Assembly (NCBI GenBank): GCA_049515915.1
Contig: JBEKTP010000005.1
Span: forward strand, 15,307-79,306
Direction of reading: 5' to 3'
DNA length: 64,000 bases
Source: Patescibacteria group bacterium
GTDB taxonomy: Bacteria; Patescibacteriota; UBA1384; UBA12157; JAENIV01
The stretch's first letter is position 1; every line of letters starts with the position of its first letter. Positions 6,413 to 63,875 of this stretch are shown piece by piece. Both the position numbers and the translations under genes were made by a program. The notes beneath the pieces were generated by a model that did no database searches, was not told where the DNA came from, and was given only the letters and a program-made list of their open reading frames with translations.

Positions 6413-6562
6413 AATTTTCCTCTGAAATCTTCCGGTGTAATTACATTACTCTGGATAAAGCATACCATATTTATCGATATTTGAACAGAGAATCTGATTT
6501 TTACTCTTTACAGGTCGGCTAAAAGATGATAAAATAAACCAAATCACCAAAGGAGGAGCGCA

Positions 6563-6832
6563 ATGCACCTGGTTGGGTTGATCCAACTCCAAAATGGCGA
6601 ACCTCCAAAATTGCATATTTGGGGGAACGTCGAGGAGCGGTATGCTTATGTACAACTTGTACATCGTCACGGTGATTCAAGAACGGCACGCGAGATTGCT
6701 CTTGGGGAGATGATTCGACTGTTGAGAGGCGGCTGGCAACTTTGTCAGACATCGAGCAGCACGTTGTTGCTCAACTACTATTTCTGCGGCGCCAGTCAGG
6801 CGCTCGCAGCCGACCACGGGAGGCGTCAATGA
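6563..6832 (+). CDS. Hypothetical 89-aa protein in a GC-richer islet (may instead be part of a structured RNA)
   Basis: A perfect SD AAGGAGG sits 6 nt upstream of the ATG. A plus-strand intrinsic terminator follows at 6874-6910. The islet is visibly GC-richer than its flanks and overlapping ORFs occur on both strands. No family was recognised. Confidence 0.3.
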   Translation: MHLVGLIQLQNGEPPKLHIWGNVEERYAYVQLVHRHGDSRTAREIALGEMIRLLRGGWQLCQTSSSTLLLNYYFCGASQALAADHGRRQ

Positions 6833-6873
6833 CTCGAACGAGAGTTCGGCGCTTCCCTTTGTTAATTAGATCC

Positions 6874-6910
6874 GAAAAATCCGCCCCTAAAGACGGATTT
6901 TTCGTTTTTT
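6874..6910 (+). terminator. Rho-independent terminator (AAAAAUCCG / CGGAUUUUU stem, then U7)
   Basis: Hairpin aaaaatccg-cccctaaaga-cggattttt followed by cgttttttt. It is plus-oriented although both flanking genes are on the minus strand, implying a plus-strand transcript ends here. Confidence 0.55.
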
Positions 6911-6947
6911 TATTCTAAGGTGCAATGAACACTAAAGTTATATTAGG

Positions 6948-10936: not shown

Positions 10937-11278
10937 CTAGTTTCTTCTGACCATATCGGAGGGTATGGTGTCCAGGGGGTCGTAGGTTCGTAGGCACTGG
11001 TGGCAAAAGTACATCCCTTCGTACTTGGCGAAAAAGAACGCCAATCCACCGTCTTTGCCTTTCGCTTTCGCGCTACAGACTGTCCCCTCAGCCCGGATGG
11101 GACGATAGAGGTGGATTTTTCCACGTTCATCTTGAACACAAGGTATCCCGAGAGCTTTATATTGCGTCATAAGCTCAAGACAGCGTTTGTCGCGCCAGAC
11201 GCTACGGCGAAATACGACGTATGATGCGATACATCCTGTAACAACAATCACTCCAGTCAATAGCAGACCATTAATCAT
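10937..11278 (-). CDS. Hypothetical TM-anchored Cys-rich protein in a GC-richer islet (start moved to Met7, which has an SD)
   Basis: GAAGGAG lies 8 nt upstream of the second ATG. The N-terminal TM helix (LLLTGVIVVTGCIASYVVF) is followed by a Cys-containing domain (CHQC). Composition is visibly GC-richer than flanking map/infA. Confidence 0.4.
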   Translation of the reverse strand: MINGLLLTGVIVVTGCIASYVVFRRSVWRDKRCLELMTQYKALGIPCVQDERGKIHLYRPIRAEGTVCSAKAKGKDGGLAFFFAKYEGMYFCHQCLRTYDPLDTIPSDMVRRN

Positions 11279-11364
11279 ACTGTTGACTCCTTCCATTATG
11301 GTGATTGCATTTTAACACAAAAAAAGACAGATTTCAACGATAAAAGATTGTGATATCGATGAAT

Positions 11365-38966: not shown

Positions 38967-39356
38967 CTAATCCCAGGGGACCCCCATCACCCGAACCGCT
39001 GGTGCAAAAACAAGTATTATCACTGCGACGATAGCCCATGGTACAATACTTGTTCCGCTGTGTACCAGCCATCCGGCACCGAGAATGGCAATGCTGGAGA
39101 CGCAACCGCCAACTAAGGCGATGAGTGGCTTCGGCCGGTCCATGTTCTTTAGCCAGTCATTCCAGAAGCACGTGAGGATGCAAAAGCAGTACATGGCGAC
39201 GATGGACACGATAGCGAAAATCACAAGCGCGATCAGTACTCGCCAGACTGTCGCAACAGGCATCCATACGCTGATCTGCCATGCGACAAACAAAGGAAAA
39301 AGCAAGTTCACCGCGAGCATCTCCGGCAAAGTCTGGTCTTCCAAATACTGATCCAT
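38967..39356 (-). CDS. Hypothetical 4-TM membrane protein in a GC-richer islet (start at ATG with AGGAGG 8 nt upstream)
   Basis: Four hydrophobic helices, a strong SD and its own terminator. It is GC-richer than rpoB and obg on either side. No family was recognised. Confidence 0.45.
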   Translation of the reverse strand: MDQYLEDQTLPEMLAVNLLFPLFVAWQISVWMPVATVWRVLIALVIFAIVSIVAMYCFCILTCFWNDWLKNMDRPKPLIALVGGCVSSIAILGAGWLVHSGTSIVPWAIVAVIILVFAPAVRVMGVPWD

Positions 39357-39432
39357 CTCGTGCACCTCCTAGTGCATGTGATCTGAAAACATTTTAGATC
39401 GTCGGAGATGAAAAGTCAAGAAAATTCTCAAC

Positions 39433-40422
39433 TTATTTGGCGAGTTCTTTGAGAAGTTCTTTGATGCCTGCCCCGGAGACGGCCGAGATAATCTGCACCG
39501 GCTTAGCAAGTTTTTTCGATAATTTACGCGCGATTTTTTGAGCGTCTTTTTGCGGTATCGTATCAGCTTTATTTAATACGATAATTTCTTTTTTCACCGA
39601 TAGATTTTCGCTCCAAGCTTTGAGTTCTTCGCGAATGACACGGTAATCTTTTTCGATATTGATGCTATTTATATCGATAAGATGAATCAGAATCTTCGTT
39701 CGTTCAATGTGTTTTAAAAACTTCACGCCCAAACCTTTGCCTTGGGAAGCCCCTTCGATCAGGCCGGGGATATCAGCCACCACAAACTCTTTGTCATGAT
39801 AGCGCGCCACGCCCAAGTTCGGTTCCAAAGTGGTGAAAGGATAGTCAGCGATTTTGGGCCGCGCGTTTGAAATAACCGAAAGTAAAGTTGATTTTCCAGC
39901 GTTGGGCAAACCGATCAAGCCGACATCGGCAATAAGTTTAAGTTCCAAATACATTTCCTTTTCTTCGCCAGCAAGACCGCGCTTAGCAATGTAAGGCGTT
40001 TGATGAACGGCGGTGGCAAAATGCGTATTACCCCAACCCCCGCGGCCTCCCTTGGCGACCAATAATCTATCCCCCTCCTTTATGAAATCGTAAATAATTC
40101 CATCATTTTGAGATTTAAGATTTAAATTTTGAATTTTTACTATTGTTCCCGGTGGCACTGGTAATTCTAAATCCTCGGCGTTTTTGCCGGTTTGTTTTTT
40201 GGGACGGCCAGTTTCGCCATTTTCCGCCTGCCACTGCTTTTTCCGAGCATAATCAGTCAGAGTGTGCGTATTTCCTGAACAAATTAAATAAATATCGCCG
40301 CCTTTACCACCATCGCCGCCGTCCGGTCCGCCTTTGGGCACATATTTTTCATGTCGAAAAGAGATGGCGCCATCACCACCTTTACCCGCCACAATATGAA
40401 TTTTCGCTTCATCGGTAATCAT
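39433..40422 (-). CDS. obgE: GTPase Obg
   Basis: Gly-rich Obg fold N-terminus (GKGGDGAISFRHEKYVPKGGPDGGDGGKGGDIY) and a GTPase domain (GLPNAGKST, NKAD). Confidence 0.9.
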   Translation of the reverse strand: MITDEAKIHIVAGKGGDGAISFRHEKYVPKGGPDGGDGGKGGDIYLICSGNTHTLTDYARKKQWQAENGETGRPKKQTGKNAEDLELPVPPGTIVKIQNLNLKSQNDGIIYDFIKEGDRLLVAKGGRGGWGNTHFATAVHQTPYIAKRGLAGEEKEMYLELKLIADVGLIGLPNAGKSTLLSVISNARPKIADYPFTTLEPNLGVARYHDKEFVVADIPGLIEGASQGKGLGVKFLKHIERTKILIHLIDINSINIEKDYRVIREELKAWSENLSVKKEIIVLNKADTIPQKDAQKIARKLSKKLAKPVQIISAVSGAGIKELLKELAK

Positions 40423-41575: not shown

Positions 41576-43462
41576 CTAGTTTCCGATTTTTCTCGCCCTT
41601 ACCTCCTTTTTATAGCACTCTAAAATATCACCAACTAATATTTTAGTCTCGGTAATAACTTTTAGCCCACACTCAAAACCTTCTAAAACCTCATGAACAT
41701 CGTTTTTATTTTGCTGAAGGTTCTCAACTCTACCTTCACCAATAGTATCTTTATCACGGGTGATTTTGACTTCGGTCTTGTTTTCGATTTGGCCGGTTGT
41801 CACTTTGCCGCCAATAATTTTTTCGTTTCGGTGAACTTTAAAAACAGCTAAAACTTCCAAGCGGCCAATTTCGGTTTCGATTATTTCCGGTTCCAAGAGC
41901 CCCGACAAAGCCGCCGCCAGATCGTCGATAAGTTGGTAAATAATATCATAAATTGAAATTTTAATATTTTCGCGGCGAGCCAAATTCATCACGTCAGCAT
42001 CGACTTTGACCCGAAAACCAATCACTAAAGCGTTTGAAGCTAAAGCCATATTGATATCTGATTCTGAGACATCGCCTACGCCTTCATGGATAATATTGAT
42101 TTTAACTTCCTCGGTCGAAATGTTTTTTAAGGATGTCGTAATGGCTTTAAGCGAGCCGTTGACATCGGCTTTAAGAACAATATTTAATTCCTTGATTTTG
42201 CCTTCTTTAATATCGCTGGATAATTCGGTAATCGAAAGCACTTTTCGTTTGATTGTCTTGGCTTTGGTCATTTCGCGAGCATTTTTTTCATCGGCGACCA
42301 CCTCAAAGCGGTCGCCAAAATTAGGCAAATCCTGCAGTCCAGCGATTTGGACTGGCGTTGACGGACCAGCTGTTAAAATTTTTTTACTTAAATAATTTTC
42401 CATAATCCGAATTTTGCCATAGGTTCGACCAATAACGACCGGATCACCCAGTTTTAAAGTTCCTTCTTGGACTAAAACCGTGGCCAGCGGCCCCAAACCA
42501 GCTTGCATATGAGACTCAATCACCACGCCGGAGGCCGGCAAGTTCGGATCGGCTTTAAGCTCGGCTAAATCAGCTACTAATAGAATCATTTCTAAAAGGC
42601 TGTCGATATTTTGCCCAGTTTTAGCGGAAACTTCCACTATCGGTGTCTTGCCACCCCATTCCTCAGGCGAGAGTCCAATATCAGCTAATTGCCTTTTGGT
42701 TTTATCAATATCGGCGTCCGGCAAATCCACTTTATTGATCGCGATCACTATGGGTACGTTAGCCGCTTTAGCATGGTTAGCCGCTTCAACCGTTTGCGGT
42801 TTGACACCATCATTGGCGGCAACAACTAAAACGACTACGTCGGTGATATTAGCGCCATGAGCGCGCATCGCCGAAAATGCTTCATGGCCAGGAGTATCTA
42901 AAAAAGTAATCGCCCTTTCTTCATTTTTAATCTTAGATTTTTGATTTTTTATTTTTATCTGGTACGCCCCAATATGTTGAGTGATGCCGCCGGATTCAGT
43001 CGAGACAACATCGGTTTGACGAATGGCGTCGAGTAATTTAGTTTTACCATGATCAACATGACCCATGACGGTGACCACCGGCGCCCGCAGAATTAGATTT
43101 TTCTTTTTATTAATAGTTTTCGCTTTAAGAGCTTTAATATTTGCACTTTCGGTTTTAAGTTTGACTTCGAACCCCAATTCATCGCCAATGATCAACATTG
43201 TATCAAAATCAATGGACTCATTTATCGTGGCCATCACCCCATTTTTAACTAAACTACCAATCACATCCGTCACCGGAAAACCTAAAGCGGCCGCAAACTC
43301 GCGCACGGTCAAAACCGAAGATACCTCAACAGACGGCTTCGCCGCTGATTGCTCATCTTTGATCGCTGCTTGCTCCTTTTTCTGCGATATGCCAGAAGCG
43401 ATATATTTTAGCTCGGCTTTGGCCTCTTTTTTACTCAATTTTCTCTGACGTCTTTTTGCCAT
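41576..43462 (-). CDS. infB: Translation initiation factor IF-2
   Basis: G-domain [24 protein letters not shown] and NKVD motifs plus C-terminal IF-2 domains. Confidence 0.9.
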   Translation of the reverse strand: MAKRRQRKLSKKEAKAELKYIASGISQKKEQAAIKDEQSAAKPSVEVSSVLTVREFAAALGFPVTDVIGSLVKNGVMATINESIDFDTMLIIGDELGFEVKLKTESANIKALKAKTINKKKNLILRAPVVTVMGHVDHGKTKLLDAIRQTDVVSTESGGITQHIGAYQIKIKNQKSKIKNEERAITFLDTPGHEAFSAMRAHGANITDVVVLVVAANDGVKPQTVEAANHAKAANVPIVIAINKVDLPDADIDKTKRQLADIGLSPEEWGGKTPIVEVSAKTGQNIDSLLEMILLVADLAELKADPNLPASGVVIESHMQAGLGPLATVLVQEGTLKLGDPVVIGRTYGKIRIMENYLSKKILTAGPSTPVQIAGLQDLPNFGDRFEVVADEKNAREMTKAKTIKRKVLSITELSSDIKEGKIKELNIVLKADVNGSLKAITTSLKNISTEEVKINIIHEGVGDVSESDINMALASNALVIGFRVKVDADVMNLARRENIKISIYDIIYQLIDDLAAALSGLLEPEIIETEIGRLEVLAVFKVHRNEKIIGGKVTTGQIENKTEVKITRDKDTIGEGRVENLQQNKNDVHEVLEGFECGLKVITETKILVGDILECYKKEVRARKIGN

Positions 43463-43610
43463 GGTAAATTGATTTTATCACCTTCAGGAGTAGATAGCAA
43501 GCATATGAGAAACCCAGCAAACCTTAGACGGTCCACGGGGCTTTTGTTCTTCCCCTCGGTCATTTTAAGAATGTATCGTCAAACGTTCACTCACGATATA
43601 ATAATGTTAA

Positions 43611-43904
43611 ATGAAAAAAGTTATTTTAATTATTGCAATTCTTATTGTAGTTGGTCTGGCCGCCGGCGTAGTTTACTTTTGGCAAACACATAAAAATATG
43701 AAATACACCGATTGGACGACCATTCAAGAACAATTCCAAAGCTGCCGTATTGCGAGTGTTGACCAGACCCATGGCCGCTTAGTCAATCTAATTCTCAAAG
43801 ATGGTTCGCGTGAATATGTTTTGGAGCCAAAAAAAGACTATATAATTGACGAATTGGTCAATGCTCTCAATAAATGCGGTCAAATTGATCTAAAAACTAA
43901 ATAA
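43611..43904 (+). CDS. Hypothetical small signal-anchored protein
   Basis: N-terminal TM (VILIIAILIVVGLAAGVVYFW) and a ~70-aa C-terminal domain with two Cys. TATAAT lies ~14 nt upstream of the ATG. Confidence 0.4.
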   Translation: MKKVILIIAILIVVGLAAGVVYFWQTHKNMKYTDWTTIQEQFQSCRIASVDQTHGRLVNLILKDGSREYVLEPKKDYIIDELVNALNKCGQIDLKTK

Positions 43905-43956
43905 TGTTCTTTCGCGGTAAGGCTTGCAAAAAGTAAACGATTTTAGGAATATGGGT

Positions 43957-43965
43957 GGGGGGGGG
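43957..43965. repeat. G9 homopolymeric tract at the 5' end of the GC-rich islet ORF
   Basis: gtgggggggggag seen directly. It lies within codons 2-4 of the longer GTG-initiated ORF (43955), or 35 nt upstream of the ATG at 44000. Confidence 0.7.
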
Positions 43966-43999
43966 AGCACTTCTCACAATTTATGCAGGAAGGACCACT

Positions 44000-44401
44000 A
44001 TGGAAGTAATTCATCAGATCGTAACTCAGATTGTGATTATGGCGCGCGAGAATGATGGCGGGGAAAGCAGTTTCATCGCCAAGATTCTCGCAAGGAGTCT
44101 CCTGTGCTGCAACATCAAGGTGGTTGCGGCCGGTGAGCCCATCCCCGATCTCAAAGGCGAGGACGACATCCTGGTTCTCTCGACCGAACGGCTCCAAACG
44201 GTCAACCAGGCCGCCGAGATGGTTACCGCCACCGACGGCGAGATCCTGATACTGGAAGAGAACAACGCTTTTCCCGTTCCTGGCGAAGTTCGAACGGTCA
44301 TTACTAACATTCCCAAACTGCACTTCGGGAATGTTACCAGGTTGACAGGAACAGACTTGGCTGAAACCGTCCTCGAACAGATCGCCAAGATCAGACAATA
44401 A
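44000..44401 (+). CDS. Hypothetical 133-aa protein in a GC-rich islet (alternative GTG start at 43955)
   Basis: SD GGAAGGA lies 5 nt upstream of the ATG. A GC hairpin follows the stop. No family was recognised. The antisense ORF 43943-44440 is judged an artefact of high GC. Confidence 0.4.
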   Translation: MEVIHQIVTQIVIMARENDGGESSFIAKILARSLLCCNIKVVAAGEPIPDLKGEDDILVLSTERLQTVNQAAEMVTATDGEILILEENNAFPVPGEVRTVITNIPKLHFGNVTRLTGTDLAETVLEQIAKIRQ

Positions 44402-44422
44402 AATGAACCCGCAGTACCAAAA

Positions 44423-44460
44423 GGCGGGGTGCCCACGCACCCCGCCTAACTCATCTTTAA
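44423..44460 (+). terminator. GC hairpin GGCGGGGUGC-CCAC-GCACCCCGCC with a weak U-tract
   Basis: A 10-bp perfect inverted repeat immediately after the stop of the islet ORF. Confidence 0.35.
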
Positions 44461-44503
44461 TATTTAGTTAGATATTTAGCCGATTTTAATATATAATGAG
44501 GAT

Positions 44504-44923
44504 GTGATTAAGAAATATTTACCTTTTTTCCAACGGAATATGCCGCCGATTCTCAATGCTATGATTGTTATTGGTGTAGGAATTATTTTTAGTCCCTTTC
44601 AACCGTTGCCGCCAAAATTATTCATCATCCTTTTATTTCTCCTCTATAATCTTGGTTGTTTTTTTCTCAACAAAAATCGCGACATTGGTATGGCGATGGT
44701 TGGTGCTTATTGGAAACAACAATATCCTAAACCTCAGCAGATTCTCTATATCGCCCTTTACACATTGAGTTTTGCCTCAATTTTCTACCATATTTTTTTC
44801 CCCTTCGATTTGCTTTTATTCAATATTGTTCTCCTACAAGTCCCTACCCTTCTTTTCAGCGGAATGACTTTTCCGGCCTTCTTGGCCGGACGAATGCAAA
44901 TTGTTGCCGGTAAACCGTTCTAA
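44504..44923 (+). CDS. Hypothetical polytopic membrane protein
   Basis: Four or five hydrophobic helices and no recognisable family. Confidence 0.4.
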   Translation: MIKKYLPFFQRNMPPILNAMIVIGVGIIFSPFQPLPPKLFIILLFLLYNLGCFFLNKNRDIGMAMVGAYWKQQYPKPQQILYIALYTLSFASIFYHIFFPFDLLLFNIVLLQVPTLLFSGMTFPAFLAGRMQIVAGKPF

Positions 44924-44999
44924 TTTACTTCATATACCAAAAAGAGCCCAAACTACAGCCTCTTTCTAAATCGTTAATTAGCATGCTTAAAGATCATTT

Positions 45000-47900
45000 T
45001 CAATTGTCTCCACCTTCTCCACCCCAATAGTTTGGCTCACTTTTCTTTTTAAATAAATTAGGCAGGTTTTGGTCGATAGTTTTATTAGGATTGCCTTTGG
45101 GCGATTCGTCTTTTTTGGTATAATCGTTGACTTTGATATCTTTTCGGTTTTTAAAAATTTGCGGTTGGCGCCACGAGTCCGCGTGAACTTTCGCCCAATC
45201 GGGAATTTTCTTCTCTTTCTCCTCTGATTTGCTTTCGGCGTTTTGGACCACGGGCGATGGCTTCTTTGACCCTTTTTCTTCGGCCGGTTTTTCTTTAATT
45301 TGCTCTTCAACTTCTTCCTCGACCCTTGCTTCCTCACTTATCTTAATAGTTGGAACTTCGTCATCTTCATCACTTTTTACATCATCAAGATCACCCCCAG
45401 TATTCGGCTCGCTCGGCAAATCAAGTTTATCAGTCATATCCTTTTTGATTACGGTAACAGAAGTGACTTTATCGCCAGAATTTAATTTGATCAGTGTGAC
45501 GCCTTGCGTGTCACGCTGCAATTCTTTAATCGAGGAAAGGGACATTCTAATAACTTGGCCTTTGGATGAAGCCAAAATAACATCGTAGTCTTCGCCGTAG
45601 ACCAGCCGCATGCCGACAATCGGCCCGGTCCGTTCGGTCACATTAGCCGCTCGAATACCCATCCCACCGCGAATCTGAGTTTTAAATTGGGGCAGTGGCG
45701 TACGTTTACCAAAGCCTTTTTCTAAAACAATCAAAGCATCAGCATCTTTCTCGCGTTCAGGGCTGACAACGTCAGTTGAAACAACATAATCATTTGCGCG
45801 TAGGGCAATACCACGCACACCAGCCGCGGTGCGGCCCATTGGCCGGATATCGGTTTCCTCATAAAGAATCGATTGTCCGCGGGCTGAGACTTGGAATATT
45901 TTTGAATTGCCTTTTGTAAATTTAACCCAGCGTAAGCGGTCATCACCTTTGAGCTTCATTGCCAAAATACCGGTTTTTCGAACTTTACTGTACATCGAAA
46001 GAGTCGTTTTCTTAACTGACCCTTTAGTGGTAGCCATCATGATAAATTTGAATTTTTCTATGTCCTTGGTCGACAAACAAATCATCGACGTCACTTTTTC
46101 TTCGGGCGAAATTTGTAAAATATTGACAATCGCTTGGCCTTTGGCAAGGCGAGAAGCGGCGGGAATTTCATAGACTTTGGTGTGGAAAACGCGGCCTCGA
46201 TCGGTGAAAAAGTAAATATCATCGTGAGTATTAGCGATAATCAAATGCTCAATCATATCTTCTTCGCGCGTTTCCATTCCCATCACCCCTTTGCCGCCGC
46301 GGACTTGACTTTTATAAGCTGCCGCCGGCATTCTTTTGATGTAATTACCACGCGTTAAAATAATAATGACTTGTTCCGATGGGATCAAATCCTCGGCCGA
46401 GAATTTGCCGATTTCTTGTGCGTAGATTTTAGTACGGCGAGGCGAAGGGAATTTATTTTTTAAATCTGTTAATTCTTTTTTGATAATTTCTAAAATCTTT
46501 TGTCCGGATGCTAAAATAGCTTCGAGCGAAGTAATAAGTTTAATTTTTTCTTGATATTCCGTTTCAACTTTTTCGCGTTCAAGAGCAGCCAGTGCCGAAA
46601 GACGCATTTCTAAAATAGCATTGGCCTGGACTTCGTCAAGTTTAAATTTAGTAATAAGCTTTTTTTGAGCCTCATTACGGTTAGTTGATTTACGAATTGT
46701 CGCGACCACTTCGTCGATATTTTTTAGCGCAATGCGCAAGCCTTCCAAAATATGAGCGCGTTCCTTCGCGCGGTCAAGTTCAAATTGAGTGCGGCGACGG
46801 ACAACGACTTGGCGATGTTTGATATATTCTTCCAAAATATTTTTCAAAGTCAAAACGCGCGGTTGTATTCCATCTACTAAAGCGAGCATGTTGACATAAA
46901 ATATCGTCTGCATCGTCGTTAGTTCATAAAGACGGTTTAAGATTTTTTTCGGGTAGGCGTTAGCGCGCAGCTCAATGACAATTCTCACCCCGTCTTTTCG
47001 GTCAGACTCATCGCGCAGATCTGAAATGCCATCGAGTTTTTTTTCTTTAACTAAATCGGCGATCTTTAAAATCAATTCGGCTTTATTAACTTGATAAGGA
47101 ATTTCAGTAACAATAATTCGAAAACCGCGTTTGGTTTCTTCGATATTGGCGACTGCCCGCATTACAATCGCGCCTTTACCGGCCCCGTAGGCATTTTTGA
47201 TTTGCGCGAGTCCATAAATTTCAGCGCCAGTTGGAAAGTCCGGCCCTTTGACAAAAGTCATCAAATCATCAATTGTGCAGTCGAGATTATCGATGAGATA
47301 AATAGCAGCGTCGCAAACTTCACCTAAGTTGTGAGGCGGGATGTTGGTAGCCATACCGACAGCAATACCCATTGAGCCGTTGAGTAGAAGATTCGGCAAT
47401 TTAGCTGGTAAAACTTTTGGTTCTTCGCGGGTGCTATCGTAGTTCGGCACAAAATCAACAGTATCTTTTTCAATATCAGAGAGCAATTCTTCGGCGGGTG
47501 CGGTCAGTCGACATTCGGTATTATGGTTAATAAAACCATTACCTACATACGAATGACACTCACTCTCAACTTTCAAAGAATAAACTTGTGCTCGACCGCC
47601 ATCACTGATCTTTGTTATCGGATCAAAAAGATAATGATTTGACAAGAGTGTCTTAAAAATATTTTTTAAATATGGCTGAACGTTTACTTTTACAGCCGAA
47701 ACAACAGCTTGATAATTCTCTTGCATTTGGAGATAGCGATCAAAATTATGTTTGACAACAAATTGTCGAACATCATGATAACTTAAACTCTCATCAAGAT
47801 TAGACCGTGTATAATCACTTAGTAAAGGCACAAAATCCGTCTGCGATTGTACTTTTTTCAAACCCTGTATAACTACTTTTAATTTATCTTTTTTTATTTT

Positions 47901-49373
47901 GCCTAAGAAATTAATTTCATGATTAAAAATCCGATAATTATCCAAACCACGAACATATAGCTTATAAATGCTTCGATAATGATCCAAGCGCAGAGTACTC
48001 GCGACCCCAAATCTCAAAAGGAGAATTTGAATTTGACGGAGGATTTCATTATTCTTGGAGATACAACTTAACTCTATCATTTTACCACTGGAACTAATTG
48101 TTCCATCCCCTTCAAAATACGCGCTCAAAAAAATACTGACCACTGATTTTGGAGATTGAAAAATTGACCAAGGAACAAGCCGATCTGCGGACTTACACGG
48201 CTTAAGACCAATGCTTTGTAAAAAACGCAAAACGTAGCGGGAATGAATTTCTAAAGTGTAGTATGATTTCTTACCAAATCCAAATGATGATGGTCTTTTT
48301 TTGAATTCATGAAGACGGCAATCCGGAAAAACCCTAAACCATCTCTTTTTAAAATTATTTATCCATTGCTTGTCAGTATTGGAAAATTCCAGCTCATTCT
48401 GACACAATGTTCCTTCAGATAGAAGCGACCCTAAAATATAAGCCAAATCTTGATTAAGCATTTTTGGTAAAACTTTTTTTTGAGCACGAGAATTTTCATC
48501 TTTCGGCCAATAAGGTTTTAGTTGAACCTTTTTCTTGGGCCATAATAAATCCGGAGTCCGGTTAATTACCGCTACATCGCCAAATTTAACTTGACTAAGC
48601 AGCTTCCACTGCAACCCCGGTGCACCATTACTTCCGTCCCCATGCCAAACTAAAATCGGATGATTATAAGAACCCTGAAGAGTATAACCTCTTAGTGTTG
48701 AGATTTTAATTGTTGGATGAGTACCGCTATCAAACCATTTAATAGCCGAGTTGATTTTTTGATTTTTTGAAAGTATTTTGCATTTAATGTCTTCCCGGCT
48801 ATCACTTGAAATGTCTTTGATTGGCATTAAACCCTTATCGGTAATAATTAAAGTATCGCCAGTAACGCAGTAACGCATAGCGGCCGCTTGGTCACCGTCA
48901 ACTGAACCGAAATTTCCCTGACCATCAACAAGGCGAACACCCATCGAAAAATCCTGGGCCAAACGAACGAGCGTATCATAAACGGCAATGTCGCCGTGCG
49001 GATGGTATTTACCCAAAACGTCACCCACCACAGTAGCTGATTTGCGATATTTGGCTTGGTGAGTCAATCCAAGTTCGTTCATCGAAAATAAAACGCGACG
49101 ATGAACTGGCTTTAAACCATCACGAACGTCAGGCAAAGCACGCGAAATAATCACCGACATAGCGTAGTCAAGATAAGATTCGCGCATTTCATTTTCTAAA
49201 ACGCGCCCGCGGACTAGCCCATAATTAGTTTTTTCGTCTTTGCCTTCCTTTTCTTCGGTAAAATCACCTAAAATTTCGGCTTTAGCCACTTCTTCAGGAT
49301 TTAATTCAGCCAATTCTTCAGCTTTAATTTCAGCGATGTTTTTGTCAGGATTATTTTGTTTTTTATCAGCCAT
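45000..49373 (-). CDS. gyrA: DNA gyrase subunit A, interrupted in-frame by an intein; long acidic/Lys-rich C-terminal tail
   Basis: N-terminal GyrA motifs through GDQAAAMRY (active-site Tyr168). An intein follows, then extein resumes at [13 protein letters not shown]. The extein is ~1007 aa. Confidence 0.9.
47520..48869 (-). mobile_element. GyrA intein (450 aa) with LAGLIDADG homing-endonuclease domain, inserted after the catalytic Tyr
   Basis: It starts at Cys (CVTGDTLII) immediately after AAMRY and ends ...[22 protein letters not shown], followed by T. Two LAGLIDADG-like blocks ([22 protein letters not shown]). Same insertion site and terminal blocks as the Mxe GyrA intein. Confidence 0.85.
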
Positions 49374-57415: not shown

Positions 57416-57549
57416 CATTTTATCCTTAAAATTCAATTTCAACCTGATATTATAATGCCAAGATATCCACAGGGGAAAGACAGTAAAAAGTAAGAAGTTA
57501 TTAGTTATTGGTTATTAAGTATAGATACCAAACTAGAGCTTATTTCCAG

Positions 57550-57578
57550 TTGACAAACAGGTTCTCCTGTGATAAGAT
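57550..57578 (+). promoter_or_regulatory. Promoter TTGACA-17-TAAGAT driving the first high-GC gene
   Basis: Consensus -35 with a 17-nt spacer; the -10 matches the TAAGAT variant used by tuf and fusA here. SD AAGGAG at 57598-57603. Confidence 0.5.
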
Positions 57579-57610
57579 ACAATATTCGCCGTAATGAAAG
57601 GAGAACGGTC

Positions 57611-58027
57611 GTGCCGATTATCACAGGGAAAGGTGTCCCGGCGGGTCTCGAAAAAGGAAAGAAGGTATACGACCAGCTCAAGCATGACATCGCGGTGGCG
57701 GCCGCAACAACACGAGGCCTCGAAGATATCGGATTCGACGAGGTGGAAGTCTTCCTGATATCTGACCTCGGCACCGTCGGCAATGCTCTTGTCTTCGAGG
57801 TTACCGGGATCTTCGAGCGCCCCGACCGGACGCCAGAGGTCTACCGCCGACTCGAGGAGAACATCTGCAGGGTCCTCCGCTCCTTCGCGAGCAAGTGGAT
57901 CCCGGCGTGCACTACCGTCGAAGCGGAGGTGATCCACAAGATGAAGCCGAAAGACTTGACGCTCTACGTACGACCAGACATCCTGGGCCTGCGCATACGG
58001 AGATTCAAGAGAATCCGATTCAAGTGA
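57611..58027 (+). CDS. Hypothetical high-GC protein (~138 aa, GTG start, N-terminal MPIITGKG; possible tautomerase-like Pro1 protein, very tentative)
   Basis: AAGGAG lies 7 nt upstream of the GTG. High-GC codon usage. Overlapping antisense ORFs are ignored. Confidence 0.4.
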   Translation: MPIITGKGVPAGLEKGKKVYDQLKHDIAVAAATTRGLEDIGFDEVEVFLISDLGTVGNALVFEVTGIFERPDRTPEVYRRLEENICRVLRSFASKWIPACTTVEAEVIHKMKPKDLTLYVRPDILGLRIRRFKRIRFK

Positions 58028-58102
58028 TGCGCATTGCGCGCATCACAAGCAGTACAAAGGCGGCGCCTGGGACACCAGGCGCCGCTTCTTCATATCAATA
58101 CC

Positions 58103-58163
58103 AAAAAGAGCTTTCGTTCTCAAAAAACAGGAAGGGCGGAGCGGACACCAGTCCGCCCCGCCC
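58103..58163 (-). terminator. 62-bp repeated element, copy 1: AGAGC-UUUC-GCUCU mini-hairpin plus 13-bp GC hairpin with a minus-strand U-run (purB-like gene terminator)
   Basis: aaaaagagctttcgttctcaaaaaacaggaagggcggagcggacaccagtccgccccgccc. On the minus strand the GC hairpin is followed by CUGUUUUUUGAG. Confidence 0.5.
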
Positions 58164-58169
58164 GCTCAC

Positions 58170-59588
58170 TTAGGCCACCAGTTGTCTCCTGGCGAGCCTG
58201 GCCACCTGCTGGGCCTTCTCGAAGGCCAAGCCAGTGTATTCTTCAGGTCGGTGAAGCAGCTCCATGATTGAGGGCGGAATGCGGCCAATCGCATCCAGGA
58301 GCGCTTCGTTTGGCATGTCCTCAAGGATGTCGATGAGGAGTCGCCCCGTCCTCTTGGACTCCGGCACAGCCTGCTCGGCCACAATCTTGTAGCCGTCGCC
58401 TTCGAAGCCGGCGATCTGCAGAGCCAGTTGCGTCGGCTCGGCCAGAAGGAAGGGGGCAACCAAGCGGAAGTTCCGTTCACAAGCATCGGCATTGACGACC
58501 ACGCGCGCCAGGAAGGGCACCCCGTCATCGTTGCGTCGCCTAAGCGTGTTAAGTTGCTGCATAACGTTGACGACGATGACCGGGAAGAAGCGCGCGACGG
58601 GACTGCCGACCAGGTCACGCTGGAGATCGCTGATGAGAGTATCCATGACGTTCCCGAACATATTCTTGGTCAGGATCCATATTCCTACCATGTTCTCGAA
58701 GTTGATCGGGTTGGTCTTCTGTCCCAACGTCGAGGAGCCAACCTCTCCGAGACCTTTGACCTCCGCGAACTCGGCGATTTCCGTGCGCATCAGGTTGCGC
58801 GCGTCCTGCCCAAGCTGCGCCATCGAGGCAGAGAAAAGACAATTCACAAAGAGGTGCAACGCCAGAGGTTCGGGCGGCAGGATCTGGGTGCTAATGCGGG
58901 CAGGCTGAAGGCCAAGTTTGGCAAGAACCCGATATTCGAACGAACACCCACCACACTTGGCAAGGATGCCCAAACCCTTCTGGGCATTGAAGGCGCCAAC
59001 CGCACCGGAGATCTTGCCGACAATCTGCCCGCAGGCCCGATCCATCTCCTCGAGCGTATACAGATAACGGGAAAGGATGGTTGCGAGCCAGAAGCCGACG
59101 GTGATCGGCAAGGCGGCTTGGAGATGTGTCCGTCCAAGCTGGAGCTGGTCAGCAAACCGTTCCACTAAGTCAGATAGCAACAGCCCGACCTCGCTGGCGG
59201 CTGGGCGGACCGCTTCTCGGTGAGCCCGAACAAAGGACATCGCCCGAGCCGTGTCGAGAGGGTCGTAGCTCGTCAAGCCGGTGTGGATCCACCGGCCGAG
59301 ACGGCGATCGACCCGTTCCATTGCCAGTTGGACCCAGGCGCGAATATCGTGCTTGGTCACCTTCCGTTCGCGCTGATCTACCTCGGTCGTGGTTATCCCG
59401 AGAAGCTGTTCACGAACATCAGGCGTCAAGAGCGCGATATCATCAGCAGGAATGAAGCCGATCTCGCCAAGCACTTCCAGATTGGCGATCTCGACTCGGG
59501 CTACGCCCTCGTACGAATGGTCGTAGCCGAAGATAGGCACAAGTTCTTTTGGCTGATACCGAGAATGCCCCGGCAGCGTCTCGTTCAT
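58170..59588 (-). CDS. purB: Adenylosuccinate lyase-like (fumarate-lyase superfamily; divergent signature loop)
   Basis: ASL-like N-terminus (..KHDIRAWVQ..) and the lyase-1 signature region GSSTLGQKTNPINFENM in place of canonical GSSAMPHKRNPI..EN. GC is high. Confidence 0.65.
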   Translation of the reverse strand: MNETLPGHSRYQPKELVPIFGYDHSYEGVARVEIANLEVLGEIGFIPADDIALLTPDVREQLLGITTTEVDQRERKVTKHDIRAWVQLAMERVDRRLGRWIHTGLTSYDPLDTARAMSFVRAHREAVRPAASEVGLLLSDLVERFADQLQLGRTHLQAALPITVGFWLATILSRYLYTLEEMDRACGQIVGKISGAVGAFNAQKGLGILAKCGGCSFEYRVLAKLGLQPARISTQILPPEPLALHLFVNCLFSASMAQLGQDARNLMRTEIAEFAEVKGLGEVGSSTLGQKTNPINFENMVGIWILTKNMFGNVMDTLISDLQRDLVGSPVARFFPVIVVNVMQQLNTLRRRNDDGVPFLARVVVNADACERNFRLVAPFLLAEPTQLALQIAGFEGDGYKIVAEQAVPESKRTGRLLIDILEDMPNEALLDAIGRIPPSIMELLHRPEEYTGLAFEKAQQVARLARRQLVA

Positions 59589-59664
59589 GTCGCGCTATGT
59601 TCTCCTTCCGCAAGTGAGTTGCTGCTCTGATTTATTTATAACAAATATTTGCTTTTTGGCAAAC

Positions 59665-59726
59665 CAAAAAAGAGCTTTCGCTCTCAAAAAATGGGAAGGG
59701 CGGAGCGGACACCAGTCCGCCCCGCC
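59665..59726 (-). terminator. 62-bp repeated element, copy 2 (purL terminator)
   Basis: aaaaaagagctttcgctctcaaaaaatgggaagggcggagcggacaccagtccgccccgccc. The 3' 34 nt are identical to copy 1. Confidence 0.5.
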
Positions 59727-59749
59727 CGGGATAGTCGGATAAGACCGCG

Positions 59750-62700
59750 CTACTTATTCGCGCGGCACCAGTCGAGGCCGTTCAGGCCGATTTGAATCCA
59801 AGGTGACTCCGGAAGGGTTTCCCGCCACTCGGGAGGCATCCAGGCCCAGAGCCTCTTCAAGTAACCACGATCAAACATGTGTGGCATGACGTAGGTGTTC
59901 CGACCGGGTTCGTCGCAAACACCTGCGACATAGTGGCCGCTCGGACTGTACGGCAACGCGCGAGTGCGGCGACCATGGGCGTCAACGTAGACGACTGGAA
60001 TCAGCCGCTTCTCATTGGCCTGCTCGAGCACTTCGGGATAGGCGGTGCAATCGAAGAAACCCTCGCCATTGGCTACGTAGGTGCCGAGAACCGATCCCTC
60101 CATCCCCCGAAAGAGAATGGAAGTGCTCGGCTCCACCAACACGCGCACCCATTGGTGATTGAACGAACCCAACTTAATCTGGGTGAACTTAGGCTGCTGG
60201 TCCTCGGGCAGTTGCGGAAATGGCGCCCAGCCGCAGCGGAGACCGAGTTGGGCTCCGTTACAGACCCCGAAGCTAAAGGTATCATCCCGAGCGAAGAACT
60301 GCTCGAAGATTGCCTTAAGCTTGGGGTTCATCTTGATCTTGAGGGCCCACCCGACCGCTGCTCCAAGGACATCGCGGAAGGTGAATCCGCCGGGGAAGAT
60401 CACGCCCCGAAACATCTCGAGGTTGTCGAGTCGACCCAATAGGAAGTCATTGAGATGAACTTCCCACGGGTCGAAGCCGACGTACCGCCAGGCCGCCATC
60501 ATCTCCACATGGCCGTTTGTTCCCTGTTCGCGGATCACCGCGAGCTTTGGCTTGTCCGGATTTCGGAGAATTGACCGCGGCCGCGTGGGTATAAATGTCA
60601 AGCGGTAGAGCGGCTGTTCGCGCGTGGCTGTGTTGCGCCATTCCTTTCCGGCCTCCGCAGGGTTGACGCGAATCTTGCGGAATTCATAGCCAGTGCGCTC
60701 CCACTTTCGCCGTGCTTCAGCCGTTGTAGCATTGAGAATCTCCTCGCCGTTATGGTTGAGACTGATCGTCTGTTCAGTCGTTGTCCGACCAAGCACCTGA
60801 TAAGGCACACCATAGTCATCGAGAACCTCACGTACCTTATCTAGGTTTTCGTCAGAGACTTCGACAACGAATCCCAACTCCTCGGCGAGCCACTCGTTGA
60901 AGGCGGAGTGCGGTGTGTTGGTGGCAAGCTTGACCCCGCAACCGGTGGCAAAGCACATTTCCGCCACTGTTGCGGCCAAACCACCGGAACTGATGTCGTG
61001 CCCGGCCGTGATGAGCTTGCTGAACAGTAAGTCCTGAGCCGCTGCGAAAGTCTTCAGTAGTAGATCGGGCCGGTCGAGGTTGGGACAATCCGCGCCCAAC
61101 TGACCAAGAGTCTGTCCGAAGGACGAGCCGCCCAGACGGCGTTCACCGTTAGCGATGTCGATCCTAACAAGCATACTCCGGCCGGGGTACTTAATCTCCG
61201 GTGTAACGTAGACTGAGATGTCCTCCACCGTGACGGCCGTAGAGAAAACGACGGTCTCGATCGACTTGACCAGAAGCTTCTTGACCCAAGTGGCCATCGA
61301 ACTCGAGTCTTTACCACCAATGATGGCAGACCAGAGCTTGATGAGCGTGTCGCGAACAGCTCTGACCGCGGCATCGAGTCGAGCAATCTCTCCATCAGGT
61401 GGCTTGAGTGTCGCCGGCCACATCCAGTTACAAAGACACTTGATCTTCTTGATGTTATCGATGCCCATGCCCATGAGGTTAGTGTACATCTCCCCAATGG
61501 ACATGCGGGCACCCGCTTGCGGATCAAGAGCAGTTAAGTACGGCGCAACCCCGAGAGTGGCAGCCTGGCCCGACTTGGAGGCTGAACTGAAGGCAACAAG
61601 TGAACAGTCGGCGACAGGAGTCGCGAACGGGCCGCAATACTGGTTCTGCACGACGAGCCCGCCAATACTTCCATCAACGCCGCGGGTAACGAACTCCTTG
61701 CTTCCCACTTCGCTCCGGCGGAAGGTTTGGAAAGCAGCTCGTTCGAAGGTGAGATCATCAGGAATCTCGAGCGGAATTCTGATGTCTTCGGGGGTTGTGT
61801 CGTGAATGTCCGGGCTATCGATCTTAGCCAAGAGCTCCGCCATAACGAAATCGACGATTGGCTTGGCATGCTTGGCCTTGACCTCTGCCTTACTGGCTTC
61901 GGAAAAGACTTGAAGACGACCGTCGCCGGCAATCTCGCCGAGAACTTCGATCGGACAGTTCTCGCGGCGGCAAACGTAACGGAGCCACTTAAGGTCACGC
62001 TTCCAGATGAGGATGCCCTGCCGTTCCTGATACTCACAGACCCAGACTTTGGCATCGGACATGGTCGGATCGCCGCGGTTGACCTGGCCGAGATAGATAC
62101 GGCCGCCAGCCCGGCCAATCAGTTCCGAAAGGATATTGGCGACGCCGCCAGCACCCTGGTCGTGAATGGCGACGATAGGGTTCTTCCGTCCGCGGGCCAT
62201 GCAGGCCAGCAGCACCTGATAAAACCGCCGTTCCATCTCGGGATCACCACGCTGAACGGCGTTCTCATCGAAGGTTGCGGTGTTCGAGCCCGAAGTCGAG
62301 CTGGAGCCCGAGCCGCCACAGAACCCGATCGGATAGGCCGGTCCCCCGATCTGAACGACTAGCATCCCCTTGCGAGGCTTCCCCTTCCGAAGATGCTGAT
62401 GCTGAATCGCGCCGCCACCAAAGCCGAAACCAACCGGCTTAAGCGACTCGACACGTTCCATGATAATCTTGCCTCGCTTGTTACGCCGAGGCCGCCAGAT
62501 GGCACCCGTAAACCAGAAACCAGCAGTGCAGGGCTTACCAAATGCATCAGCGTAGTCGTGCCAGCCTTGAAGACTCTTGGCCGCGACTTCGACCGGGGTA
62601 GCCTTGTCAGTCGGGTAGTCATAGCGCCGCCCGCGGATGAATTCGCCGGGAATACGGTAGCCGCTCGGGAAGCGGATGCTCCCCAAAATCCGACCCTGTA

Positions 62701-63661
62701 GTGCGTACAGGATGTCGGATACACTGCCGGCGCCTAGCTGATCGCGGATCTCGCCCCCAATCTCTGTCGCCGAGCCCGGATAGGGCGCGACGTGATCAGG
62801 ATAGTTGTGCGTCTCCGCACTAAATAAGGCATGGAGTGTCACCCGGACCCACTTGTAGGGACCAGGTTCCCCGGGATAGGCCGCCACGAGCACGGGCACA
62901 GTGGAACCTTCGACGGCACTCGCGTTATCGGAGCCCGCGATCATGATGTTGTCGGCGTCGGTCCCCCGAAGCGCCTTGAGCGGCTCCCGAAGGAGTTCGA
63001 TCAAAGTGTAGGGCCGACGCTCGCCATCAATCACAAAGTGGGTCAGGAAGAAGAGGTCGTGCCAGCAGTGGTTAGACCACATCTGACTGAGCTGATAGAG
63101 CGCCACGTCAGTGGGGTTTCGCCCCATCCGTACGAATATCCGCTCTATCCGCTGGAGCTTCGCTTCATTGAAGCCGAGGTTCTCGGCTGTATTGAAGTGA
63201 TCGAGCGCCGCTCTTCCCTCCTCGAAAAGCGGGATGACGCGAACAGGCGGCACCGCAACGTCTACTTGGAAACTGCAAGGCAGCTCCTCGTAGATTTCTT
63301 CAGTCACCATATCGCGTCTTGTCTTGAGGAATTCGGTCGGGTCTCTGCCCGAAGGAACAGCGTACCGTCTGAAATGCTCGATTCGTCCGACTTCAGGGAA
63401 GCCAACAGCGTGAGTGATCTCAACAGCCATCGATGAAAACGGCGTCTCAATCGCCAGCCGAGGCCCAACGATAACAGCACCGTCAAGCTCCGGGATGTTC
63501 GTGACACGATGCGTCGGCAGATACTTGAAGAGTCCTCGTATGCTGGCGATGAGCCTCCTCGACTGCGCCAGAGTGAGAGAAACGTCAATCCCGACCAAGA
63601 AGCAGCTTTCCGAACCGTCCGGCTCGAGCCGGTAAAACGGCAACGTCATCTTCTTTGTCAT
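59750..63661 (-). CDS. purL: Phosphoribosylformylglycinamidine synthase, large single-chain form (1303 aa)
   Basis: N-domain, two PurM-like repeats (AIHDQGAGGVANILSELI; VQIGGPAYPIGFCGG) and a C-terminal class-I glutaminase with GVCNGAQLG. Very high GC. Confidence 0.85.
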   Translation of the reverse strand: MTKKMTLPFYRLEPDGSESCFLVGIDVSLTLAQSRRLIASIRGLFKYLPTHRVTNIPELDGAVIVGPRLAIETPFSSMAVEITHAVGFPEVGRIEHFRRYAVPSGRDPTEFLKTRRDMVTEEIYEELPCSFQVDVAVPPVRVIPLFEEGRAALDHFNTAENLGFNEAKLQRIERIFVRMGRNPTDVALYQLSQMWSNHCWHDLFFLTHFVIDGERRPYTLIELLREPLKALRGTDADNIMIAGSDNASAVEGSTVPVLVAAYPGEPGPYKWVRVTLHALFSAETHNYPDHVAPYPGSATEIGGEIRDQLGAGSVSDILYALQGRILGSIRFPSGYRIPGEFIRGRRYDYPTDKATPVEVAAKSLQGWHDYADAFGKPCTAGFWFTGAIWRPRRNKRGKIIMERVESLKPVGFGFGGGAIQHQHLRKGKPRKGMLVVQIGGPAYPIGFCGGSGSSSTSGSNTATFDENAVQRGDPEMERRFYQVLLACMARGRKNPIVAIHDQGAGGVANILSELIGRAGGRIYLGQVNRGDPTMSDAKVWVCEYQERQGILIWKRDLKWLRYVCRRENCPIEVLGEIAGDGRLQVFSEASKAEVKAKHAKPIVDFVMAELLAKIDSPDIHDTTPEDIRIPLEIPDDLTFERAAFQTFRRSEVGSKEFVTRGVDGSIGGLVVQNQYCGPFATPVADCSLVAFSSASKSGQAATLGVAPYLTALDPQAGARMSIGEMYTNLMGMGIDNIKKIKCLCNWMWPATLKPPDGEIARLDAAVRAVRDTLIKLWSAIIGGKDSSSMATWVKKLLVKSIETVVFSTAVTVEDISVYVTPEIKYPGRSMLVRIDIANGERRLGGSSFGQTLGQLGADCPNLDRPDLLLKTFAAAQDLLFSKLITAGHDISSGGLAATVAEMCFATGCGVKLATNTPHSAFNEWLAEELGFVVEVSDENLDKVREVLDDYGVPYQVLGRTTTEQTISLNHNGEEILNATTAEARRKWERTGYEFRKIRVNPAEAGKEWRNTATREQPLYRLTFIPTRPRSILRNPDKPKLAVIREQGTNGHVEMMAAWRYVGFDPWEVHLNDFLLGRLDNLEMFRGVIFPGGFTFRDVLGAAVGWALKIKMNPKLKAIFEQFFARDDTFSFGVCNGAQLGLRCGWAPFPQLPEDQQPKFTQIKLGSFNHQWVRVLVEPSTSILFRGMEGSVLGTYVANGEGFFDCTAYPEVLEQANEKRLIPVVYVDAHGRRTRALPYSPSGHYVAGVCDEPGRNTYVMPHMFDRGYLKRLWAWMPPEWRETLPESPWIQIGLNGLDWCRANK

Positions 63662-63875
63662 GGAACAAAACCTCGCTGCAAGGATTACAAGATACTAAGA
63701 CTCTCTGGTCATGCCGACGGCAGAGAACCAGTTAGTCTTCGACTTAATCTTACAAACCCAAATGACATAAAAAAAGTCTTAAGTCAAGACGTGCTCTTTT
63801 TTATTTGATAACTCAAAAAAGAGCTTTCGCTCTTTGAAATGCAACGGCCGAGACCCACGTCGGATCTCGGCCAGT

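Follow-up and report, generated by a model that had tools for sequence, protein, structure and literature searches.

A G9 homopolymer in the predicted leader of a GC-rich cargo gene between infB and gyrA in a Patescibacteria genome

In a Patescibacteria genome, nine consecutive Gs are found 35 nt 5' of the start codon of a small GC-rich gene (orf133) located between infB and gyrA. We lean towards regarding this run as an incidentally hypermutable homopolymer in the leader of a gene cassette, where gain or loss of one G would have a small effect on expression or none, acting at most as a rheostat. The sequence analyzed, hereafter called the window, comprises 64,000 nt of contig JBEKTP010000005.1 (GCA_049515915.1; positions 15,307–79,306, forward strand). 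The original prediction was of a phase-variable gene with a classic contingency-locus arrangement. As a length criterion for contingency loci, we considered G/C homopolymers of about 8 or more, which slip at high frequency. G9 is long enough by this measure, but it lies outside both the conserved ORF and the predicted promoter spacer, and hence the classic arrangement is not supported. Features of the locus are collected in Table 1.

Table 1. Sequence features of the orf133 cassette and cargo genes between infB and orf139 in the window and in related loci
Feature	Position	Strand	Remarks
-35-like box CTTGCAA (TTGCAA at 43924–43929)	43923–43929	+	same heptamer upstream in L001, L004, L005 and L007
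-10-like hexamer GAATAT, predicted, weak	43947–43952	+	17 nt after the -35 box; read from sequence
Upstream start candidates: ATG 43951–43953, GTG 43955–43957	43951–43957	+	frame depends on tract length
G9 homopolymer	43957–43965	+	G10 in L008; GGGGGAAG in the sister strain
Predicted 5'-leader hairpin GGGGGG-AGCA-CUUCUC	43960–43975	+	from folding; weak, three G-U pairs
Shine-Dalgarno (SD) element AGGAAGGA	43987–43994	+	5 nt before ATG 44000; AGGAGGGA in L001
CDS (orf133), 133-aa alpha/beta protein of an uncharacterized five-member family	44000–44401	+	GC3 0.65; frame open in both strains
GC-rich 3' hairpin, terminator-like, no clear U-tract	44422–44447	+	11-bp stem
Cargo infB–orf139, window			orf97, orf133
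Cargo infB–orf139, L001			UbiA, orf97, orf133
Cargo infB–orf139, L004			241-aa gene, homologue, 133-aa gene on opposite strand
Cargo infB–orf139, L005			RNase H, 171-aa gene, homologue
Cargo infB–orf139, L007			RNase H, homologue

The run occupies exactly the position originally given for it, within the sequence ...TAGGAATATGGGT-GGGGGGGGG-AGCACTTCTC..., and it is the sole G/C run of at least 7 in the window. Runs of length 5 occur 25 times and runs of length 6 three times, and there are none of length 7 or 8. Against this spectrum G9 is a clear outlier. However, the statement that it is very unlikely by chance goes too far: dinucleotide-preserving shuffles yielded 0.32 G9/C9 runs per window, with at least one such run in 25 of 100 shuffles, and hence the tract is not astronomically improbable. 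The background composition was also misjudged. Rather than ∼38%, GC content is 0.428 over the window and 0.412 when a block at 57.5–64 kb is left out.

This 6-kb block (57500–63700) has a GC content of 0.54–0.62 and a GC3 of ∼0.7, compared to a GC content of 0.41 in the rest of the window. It carries genes for a large-type FGAM synthase (purL-like, 59750–63661, minus strand) and a Lyase_1/purB-like protein (58170–59588, minus strand), along with a 152-aa ORF without a family, and shows no rRNA or other Rfam match. Horizontal acquisition of a purine-synthesis island is the probable origin of the block, the alternative being an assembly chimera. A GC-rich (∼0.49) intergenic stretch of ∼480 nt (6446–6930) separates an rbfA-like gene from rpsI and contains short overlapping ORFs only; it has no Rfam match (best E = 0.06) and may be an unrecognized structured RNA. 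Two small minus-strand ORFs also stand out. One (38967–39365; 132 aa, GC3 0.64) encodes a membrane-protein-like product and lies downstream of obg (39433–40422); the other (10937–11296; 119 aa, GC3 0.52) lies between map and infA in the ribosomal-protein cluster. Neither belongs to a Pfam family, and both may be further cargo insertions. Paralogy between these ORFs and orf133 was considered and rejected, as the sequences are visibly unrelated. A search of positions 1–64000 yielded no tRNA gene, and none of the Rfam families attained its gathering score.

Both starts proposed for the gene are present in the sequence: GTG 43955, in frame when the tract is G9, yields 148 aa (a form also called in Logan), and ATG 44000, with its SD element, yields 133 aa. 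Four lines of evidence support ATG 44000 as the true start. The SD element is strong, and strong SDs are likewise found upstream of the orf133 homologues. Distant homologues begin MDIVIV or MARIAV, which align to residues 9–10 of the ATG-44000 protein. In the AlphaFold model, strand β1 corresponds to residues 9–14, and residues 1–8 are disordered (pLDDT <50 for residues 1–5). Finally, the GTG frame is not conserved; in the sister strain the tract region measures 8 nt, and hence this frame is out of register there and runs into a stop. These data place the tract outside the conserved coding sequence. The GTG-initiated 148-aa form was rejected as the conserved product, since its frame is broken in the sister strain, the homologues start later and the ordered part of the model does so too. 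The idea of a frameshift switch, in which slippage toggles translation of the full-length form, loses its footing for the same reasons. Both the upstream ATG and the GTG also lie at or before the predicted start of transcription. The reading frames upstream do change with tract length: 8 nt (L001) brings the ATG into register with the ORF, G9 does so for the GTG, and G10 (L008) for neither. As L001 and L007 each have an upstream ATG in register with the ORF, a long isoform initiated from this codon is possible.

orf133 is a real protein gene, belonging to a very small uncharacterized family. The plus-strand frame is open in both strains. A 165-aa ORF on the minus strand was rejected as a real gene, as it has acquired a stop in L001. 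A word-indexed search of 5.8 billion clusters returned the orf133 cluster itself and one relative at 89% identity, and an exhaustive phmmer search of 1.84 billion representatives added three more at 34–39% identity (E values of 8e-10 to 1e-6). A profile search found no relatives beyond this five-member set (homologues P0002–P0005). No significant match was seen in Pfam, NCBIfam, PADLOC, PHROG or the PDB sequences. Thus the homology search that had been suggested as a check bears out the description of the protein as one of unknown family. Given an alignment of the five sequences, AlphaFold confidently predicts a three-layer alpha/beta fold built from five beta-alpha units (pLDDT 84, pTM 0.79); the model from the single sequence was unusable (pLDDT 38).

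The predicted fold, in which 5 strands and 4 helices form beta-alpha-beta repeats, resembles that of SIS/flavodoxin-like domains (YckF/HxlB 1m3s, the GlmS isomerase domain, flavodoxin), but the fold scores for orf133 are weak and non-specific, and there is no family match at the sequence level. Foldseek comparison to the PDB returned generic folds of the SIS, PurE, flavodoxin, TIR and CheY types, with query-normalized TM-scores of 0.33–0.58, and matches in BFVD were similarly non-specific. Membership in the SIS family is not supported: there is no Pfam match; the sole NCBIfam hit, HxlB (E = 0.034), scores 14 bits against a cut-off of 160; and the SIS phosphate-binding loop S-x-S-G-x-T after strand 3 is absent, the loop being LS-TERLQT or VPAERLQT, without S-G. 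A defence or phage origin was likewise rejected, given the absence of PADLOC and PHROG matches and the non-specific fold matches in BFVD.

Structured non-coding RNAs often account for GC-rich islets where the genome is otherwise AT-rich. The coding region (44000–44401) does fold unusually well (z –4.4), as does the whole transcript (z –5.98), and in the 3' hairpin, anticipated from the outset, arms 44422–44432 and 44437–44447 pair with a ΔG of –24.8 kcal/mol (z –5.97). However, no Rfam match reached the gathering score (best E = 0.5 in 43400–45000), no tRNA or tmRNA was found, and the coding regions of the homologues fold with z values of –2.7 to +0.2. As the ORF is conserved as a protein down to 32–39% identity and the folding signal is not shared by its homologues, a structured RNA was rejected. 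The stem of the 3' hairpin is conserved in L001, with a changed loop, and all distant homologues end in GC-rich hairpins at the same place but of different sequence.

The islet described in the original prediction is real. GC content is 0.527 for orf133, compared to 0.36–0.41 for its neighbors. The excess is concentrated in the third codon position (0.65 versus ∼0.38 genome-wide) and the first (0.59 versus ∼0.50), with GC2 unchanged. The same pattern is seen for every homologue, with GC3 values of 0.63–0.74 and gene GC contents of 0.53–0.62, versus 0.42–0.50 in the rest of each locus. All loci share a common backbone—infB, cargo, orf139 (a low-GC membrane-protein gene), gyrA—and the cargo differs from one locus to the next (Table 1). 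Between the window and L004, identity is 74% for the N-terminus of IF-2, 72% for orf139 and 83–91% for GyrA, but 37% for the orf133 homologue. For orf133, the two close strains give a dN/dS of 0.47, compared to 0.25 for orf97 and 0.08 for orf139. The islet corresponds to a self-contained cargo gene that is compositionally distinct, diverges fast and sits in a variable slot. Its GC excess may stem from horizontal exchange with a gene pool of higher GC content or from GC-biased conversion at a recombination hotspot.

Several other features of this region deserve mention. In L001, a UbiA-family prenyltransferase gene (265 aa; L001 3611–4568, corresponding to window 43463–43567) lies between infB and orf97; its absence from the window accounts for a difference of ∼850 bp in the same variable slot. 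The gyrA gene of the window (45000–49373, minus strand, 1457 aa) encodes an intein with a LAGLIDADG homing-endonuclease domain, and gyrA of L004 (999 aa) does not; a 6-nt in-frame indel (48274–48279) distinguishes gyrA of the two close strains. We also asked whether the orf133 family forms a conserved two-gene system with the 241-aa gene of L004 or the 171-aa gene of L005, and rejected this idea, as those neighbors are dissimilar to each other.

Upstream of orf133, the heptamer CTTGCAA is conserved. It occurs only about 9 times on both strands of the window (128 kb), and hence its recurrence at the same position upstream of the homologues and islands cannot be attributed to chance. We infer that it serves as a –35 box. 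The arrangement is CTTGCAA-N17-GAATAT in the window and L001, CTTGCAA-N17-TAGTTT in L005, and CTTGCAA-N16-TAAAAT in L004 and L007. GAATAT, which matches the consensus at 3 of 6 positions and falls below the threshold of a consensus scanner, is the putative –10 box. Transcription would then start at about 43958–43960, inside the tract; with the first G 4 nt after the predicted –10 box, the tract covers the predicted start site. By this geometry, it lies 3' of the –10 box and outside the –35/–10 spacer.

The L004 and L007 loci show some further peculiarities. The promoter-leader segments L004 667–715 and L007 310–360 (CTTGCAA...TAAAAT..GGCATGGGAGTTTCTCCC) hardly differ from each other, although the proteins encoded downstream are only 37% identical; in L004, an extra 241-aa gene is inserted 3' of the shared leader. 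The ATG is located 6 nt after the –10 box, a geometry like that of leaderless mRNA. Just upstream of the island promoter, the infB-island intergenic region of L004 contains two copies of a 22-nt direct tandem repeat, aattgtaatcaattagtatcgt (572–620).

Folding of the leader points to a short hairpin that includes part of the tract. Its 5' arm is offset from the –35 box by 36–37 nt in three lineages, and the predicted elements are GGGGGG-AGCA-CUUCUC in the window, GGGAAG-AGCA-CUUCUC in L001 and GGGAG-UUU-CUCCC in L004 and L007. The A/G differences between strains at 43963 and 43964 replace A-U pairs with G-U pairs, such that pairing with CUUCUC is kept. In L001, L004 and L007, the hairpin is predicted as a minimum-free-energy element. 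One caveat here is that the leader folds better than its shuffles in L001 (z –2.5) but not in the window, L004, L005 or L007, and therefore the hairpin can be called suggestive but not established. A known 5'-terminal stem-loop that stabilizes mRNA is that of the E. coli ompA leader. The predicted hairpin is similar in that it would form within 1–2 nt of the 5' end and is conserved in position with differing sequence; it is dissimilar in being short and weak, with three G-U pairs, and no better than shuffles. The hairpin may have a role in the leader.

The number of Gs has no predicted influence on the SD element. When the run was varied in silico from 3 to 12, pairing of the SD/AUG region stayed constant (0.54–0.56), which rules out, at the level of folding, control of SD accessibility by tract length. 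Together with the location of the tract 3' of the predicted –10 box, this argues against a switch based on promoter spacing. Folds of the 44–47-nt leader revealed no attenuator or terminator-like hairpin before the AUG. A separate helix of 7 bp is predicted between leader nucleotides CACAAUU (43975–43981) and GAUUGUG (44032–44038), enclosing the SD and AUG. Among the homologues, the tract is absent from all but the two close strains, which speaks against phase variation.

How variable is the run? Three assemblies of the same strain carry G9: the window, L003 (Logan, SRR13021960; 100% identity over 6,447 nt) and L009 (JGI 3300018004; 100% identity over 1,937 nt). A fourth contig, L008 (ERZ27250043), matches the window with 0 mismatches over 2,669 nt and a single gap, which corresponds to G10 at the tract. 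The version found in the sister strain (L001/L002; nucleotide identity 95.4%) is interrupted and 8 nt long. When 44 homopolymers of the window were compared with their counterparts in that strain, the G9 tract alone differed in length. The predicted length polymorphism is borne out to this extent, although G10 is represented by one contig, compared at the contig level, and could be a sequencing error. Hence, the site is either length-unstable or prone to sequencing error; the L008 contig provides evidence for ±1 instability, and hypermutability of the tract is plausible. The protein cluster of orf133 contains calls of 133, 148 and 120 aa only, the first carried by 24 contigs; the comparison of tract length covers the contigs named above. 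No extension-bearing variants of 147, 149 or 150 aa, such as would be expected from G6, G8, G11 or G12, were present in a collection of 15 billion proteins. Pattern scans of metagenome_contigs, genome_contigs and viral_contigs found no further copies of the tract.

Could slippage nonetheless switch, or strongly modulate, expression of orf133? Transcriptionally, a change in length might alter promoter output near the start site or shift the balance between reiterative and productive initiation. Translationally, in transcripts that include 43951–43957, G8 or G11 would put the upstream ATG in frame and G9 or G12 the GTG, and G10 would create a short uORF ending at TAA 44006–44008 and overlapping the main AUG, with isoforms being toggled or coupling changed. 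We view a true phase-variable locus of either kind as doubtful. Nine Gs fall within the range of lengths that phase-vary in Campylobacter, Neisseria and Treponema, but organisms with contingency loci have many such tracts, and here there is one in 64 kb. The gene is of the type usually found at such loci, in that it evolves fast (37% identity versus 72–91% for the flanks) and occupies a variable slot, and the tract is the only one of the 44 homopolymers compared between the strains to vary in length, with G9 and G10 also seen among otherwise identical contigs. Yet the distant homologues manage without a tract. For the translational route, the in-frame upstream ATG of L001 and L007 is encouraging, but the tract lies outside the conserved CDS, the main ATG retains its strong SD at any tract length, and folding predicts no structural effect on the SD. 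The transcriptional route has in its favor that at least three identical bases at the start site are all that reiterative initiation requires. On the other hand, the tract is, by prediction, outside the –35/–10 spacer, an added G alters none of the 8 nt that follow the –10 box, and the leader lacks an attenuator hairpin.

At the other extreme, the tract may be stable in vivo, a functionless by-product of local G-richness, with G10 stemming from an error of sequencing or assembly. We consider this unlikely. A quarter of the dinucleotide shuffles contain a G9/C9 run, and the sister strain is locally G-rich already (GGGTGGGGGAAG), but no second G/C run in the window reaches a length of 7. G9 is the reading in at least five contigs, namely the window, L009, L003 and two further Logan contigs that share the 148-aa call with L003, and the one source of G10 is a short MEGAHIT contig (2.7 kb), probably of low coverage. 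However, the extra G is the sole difference in 2,669 nt, consensus errors at 9–10-nt homopolymers are uncommon in Illumina assemblies, and the two strains differ by an indel at exactly this site.

Comparison with known systems yields similarities of position but little beyond. Like the SSR contingency loci of Haemophilus, Neisseria, Campylobacter and Helicobacter, G9 lies near a gene start, appears to differ by ±1 among near-identical genomes and is associated with an accessory, fast-evolving gene. Unlike those loci, in which the repeat is inside the ORF or between the –35 and –10 boxes, it lies 35 nt 5' of the start codon and 3' of the predicted –10 box, and it is a single tract in 64 kb, known from sequence alone. 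In Treponema pallidum, G tracts near transcription starts modulate transcription of tpr subfamily I/II genes and TP0126 (Giacani et al., reviewed in PMC10118025). Those tracts, too, are promoter-proximal, variable in length, 5' of the coding sequence and found in a bacterium with a reduced genome, but they lie upstream of the transcription start and their effect was measured, whereas here the start is predicted and falls within the tract. A homopolymer of at least three identical bases at the start site gives rise to reiterative initiation and a reduced yield of full-length transcript (PMC8812562), examples being the promoters of B. subtilis pyrG and E. coli pyrBI, codBA and upp (PMC8812562, PMC7039003). 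In the orf133 cassette such a homopolymer is present at or just after the predicted start, and thus slippage of RNA polymerase with addition of extra Gs is mechanistically expected. In the known reiterative promoters, however, slippage is tied to an NTP-sensing attenuator or to a switch of start site, whereas the leader here, of 44–47 nt, is devoid of an attenuator and the gene is not one of nucleotide metabolism. The tract resembles the T. pallidum poly-G tracts and the reiterative promoters in position only. Even so, these two precedents make a real regulatory effect possible. The most far-reaching idea would be a first SSR contingency switch in Patescibacteria (CPR), tuning initiation or isoform choice of a rapidly diversifying cargo gene exchanged at a fixed infB–gyrA hotspot, perhaps in the context of episymbiont–host interaction or phage defence; we regard this as quite improbable. 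The papers searched contain no link between Patescibacteria and SSR phase variation, the one co-mention of the two being unrelated.

The reading that we prefer, an incidentally hypermutable homopolymer in a cassette leader, can be laid out as follows. The cassette would be self-contained, with promoter, leader, SD, 133-aa ORF and 3' hairpin all belonging to it. The tract would represent the region of transcription start together with the purine arm of a short 5'-terminal hairpin, paired with CUUCUC. In related genomes the arm reads GGGAAG or GGGAG. A pure G run may have arisen in this strain through one extra base and two A-to-G changes, the latter being tolerated because G can pair with U, and this run would then be subject to gain and loss of single Gs (G9/G10). 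A one-base change of this sort would merely give the mRNA a longer 5' end. Because the protein start is 35 nt downstream with an SD of its own, and because the run is outside the –35/–10 spacer, the effect on expression is expected to be small or nil, and tract length would be without phenotypic effect.

A long homopolymer beside a start codon does not by itself make a contingency locus, and the true start codon, the promoter geometry and the homologues all need checking before one is proposed. If the tract truly switches, repeat-driven stochastic control would extend to the ultra-small, uncultured Patescibacteria, and an orphan family would be flagged as one in need of variation, for example for a function in host interaction or defence. 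The cargo slot, compositionally distinct, fast-diverging and fixed in its place on the chromosome in several related genomes, is perhaps the more useful lead, and this slot and the orphan alpha/beta family are the results more likely to last.
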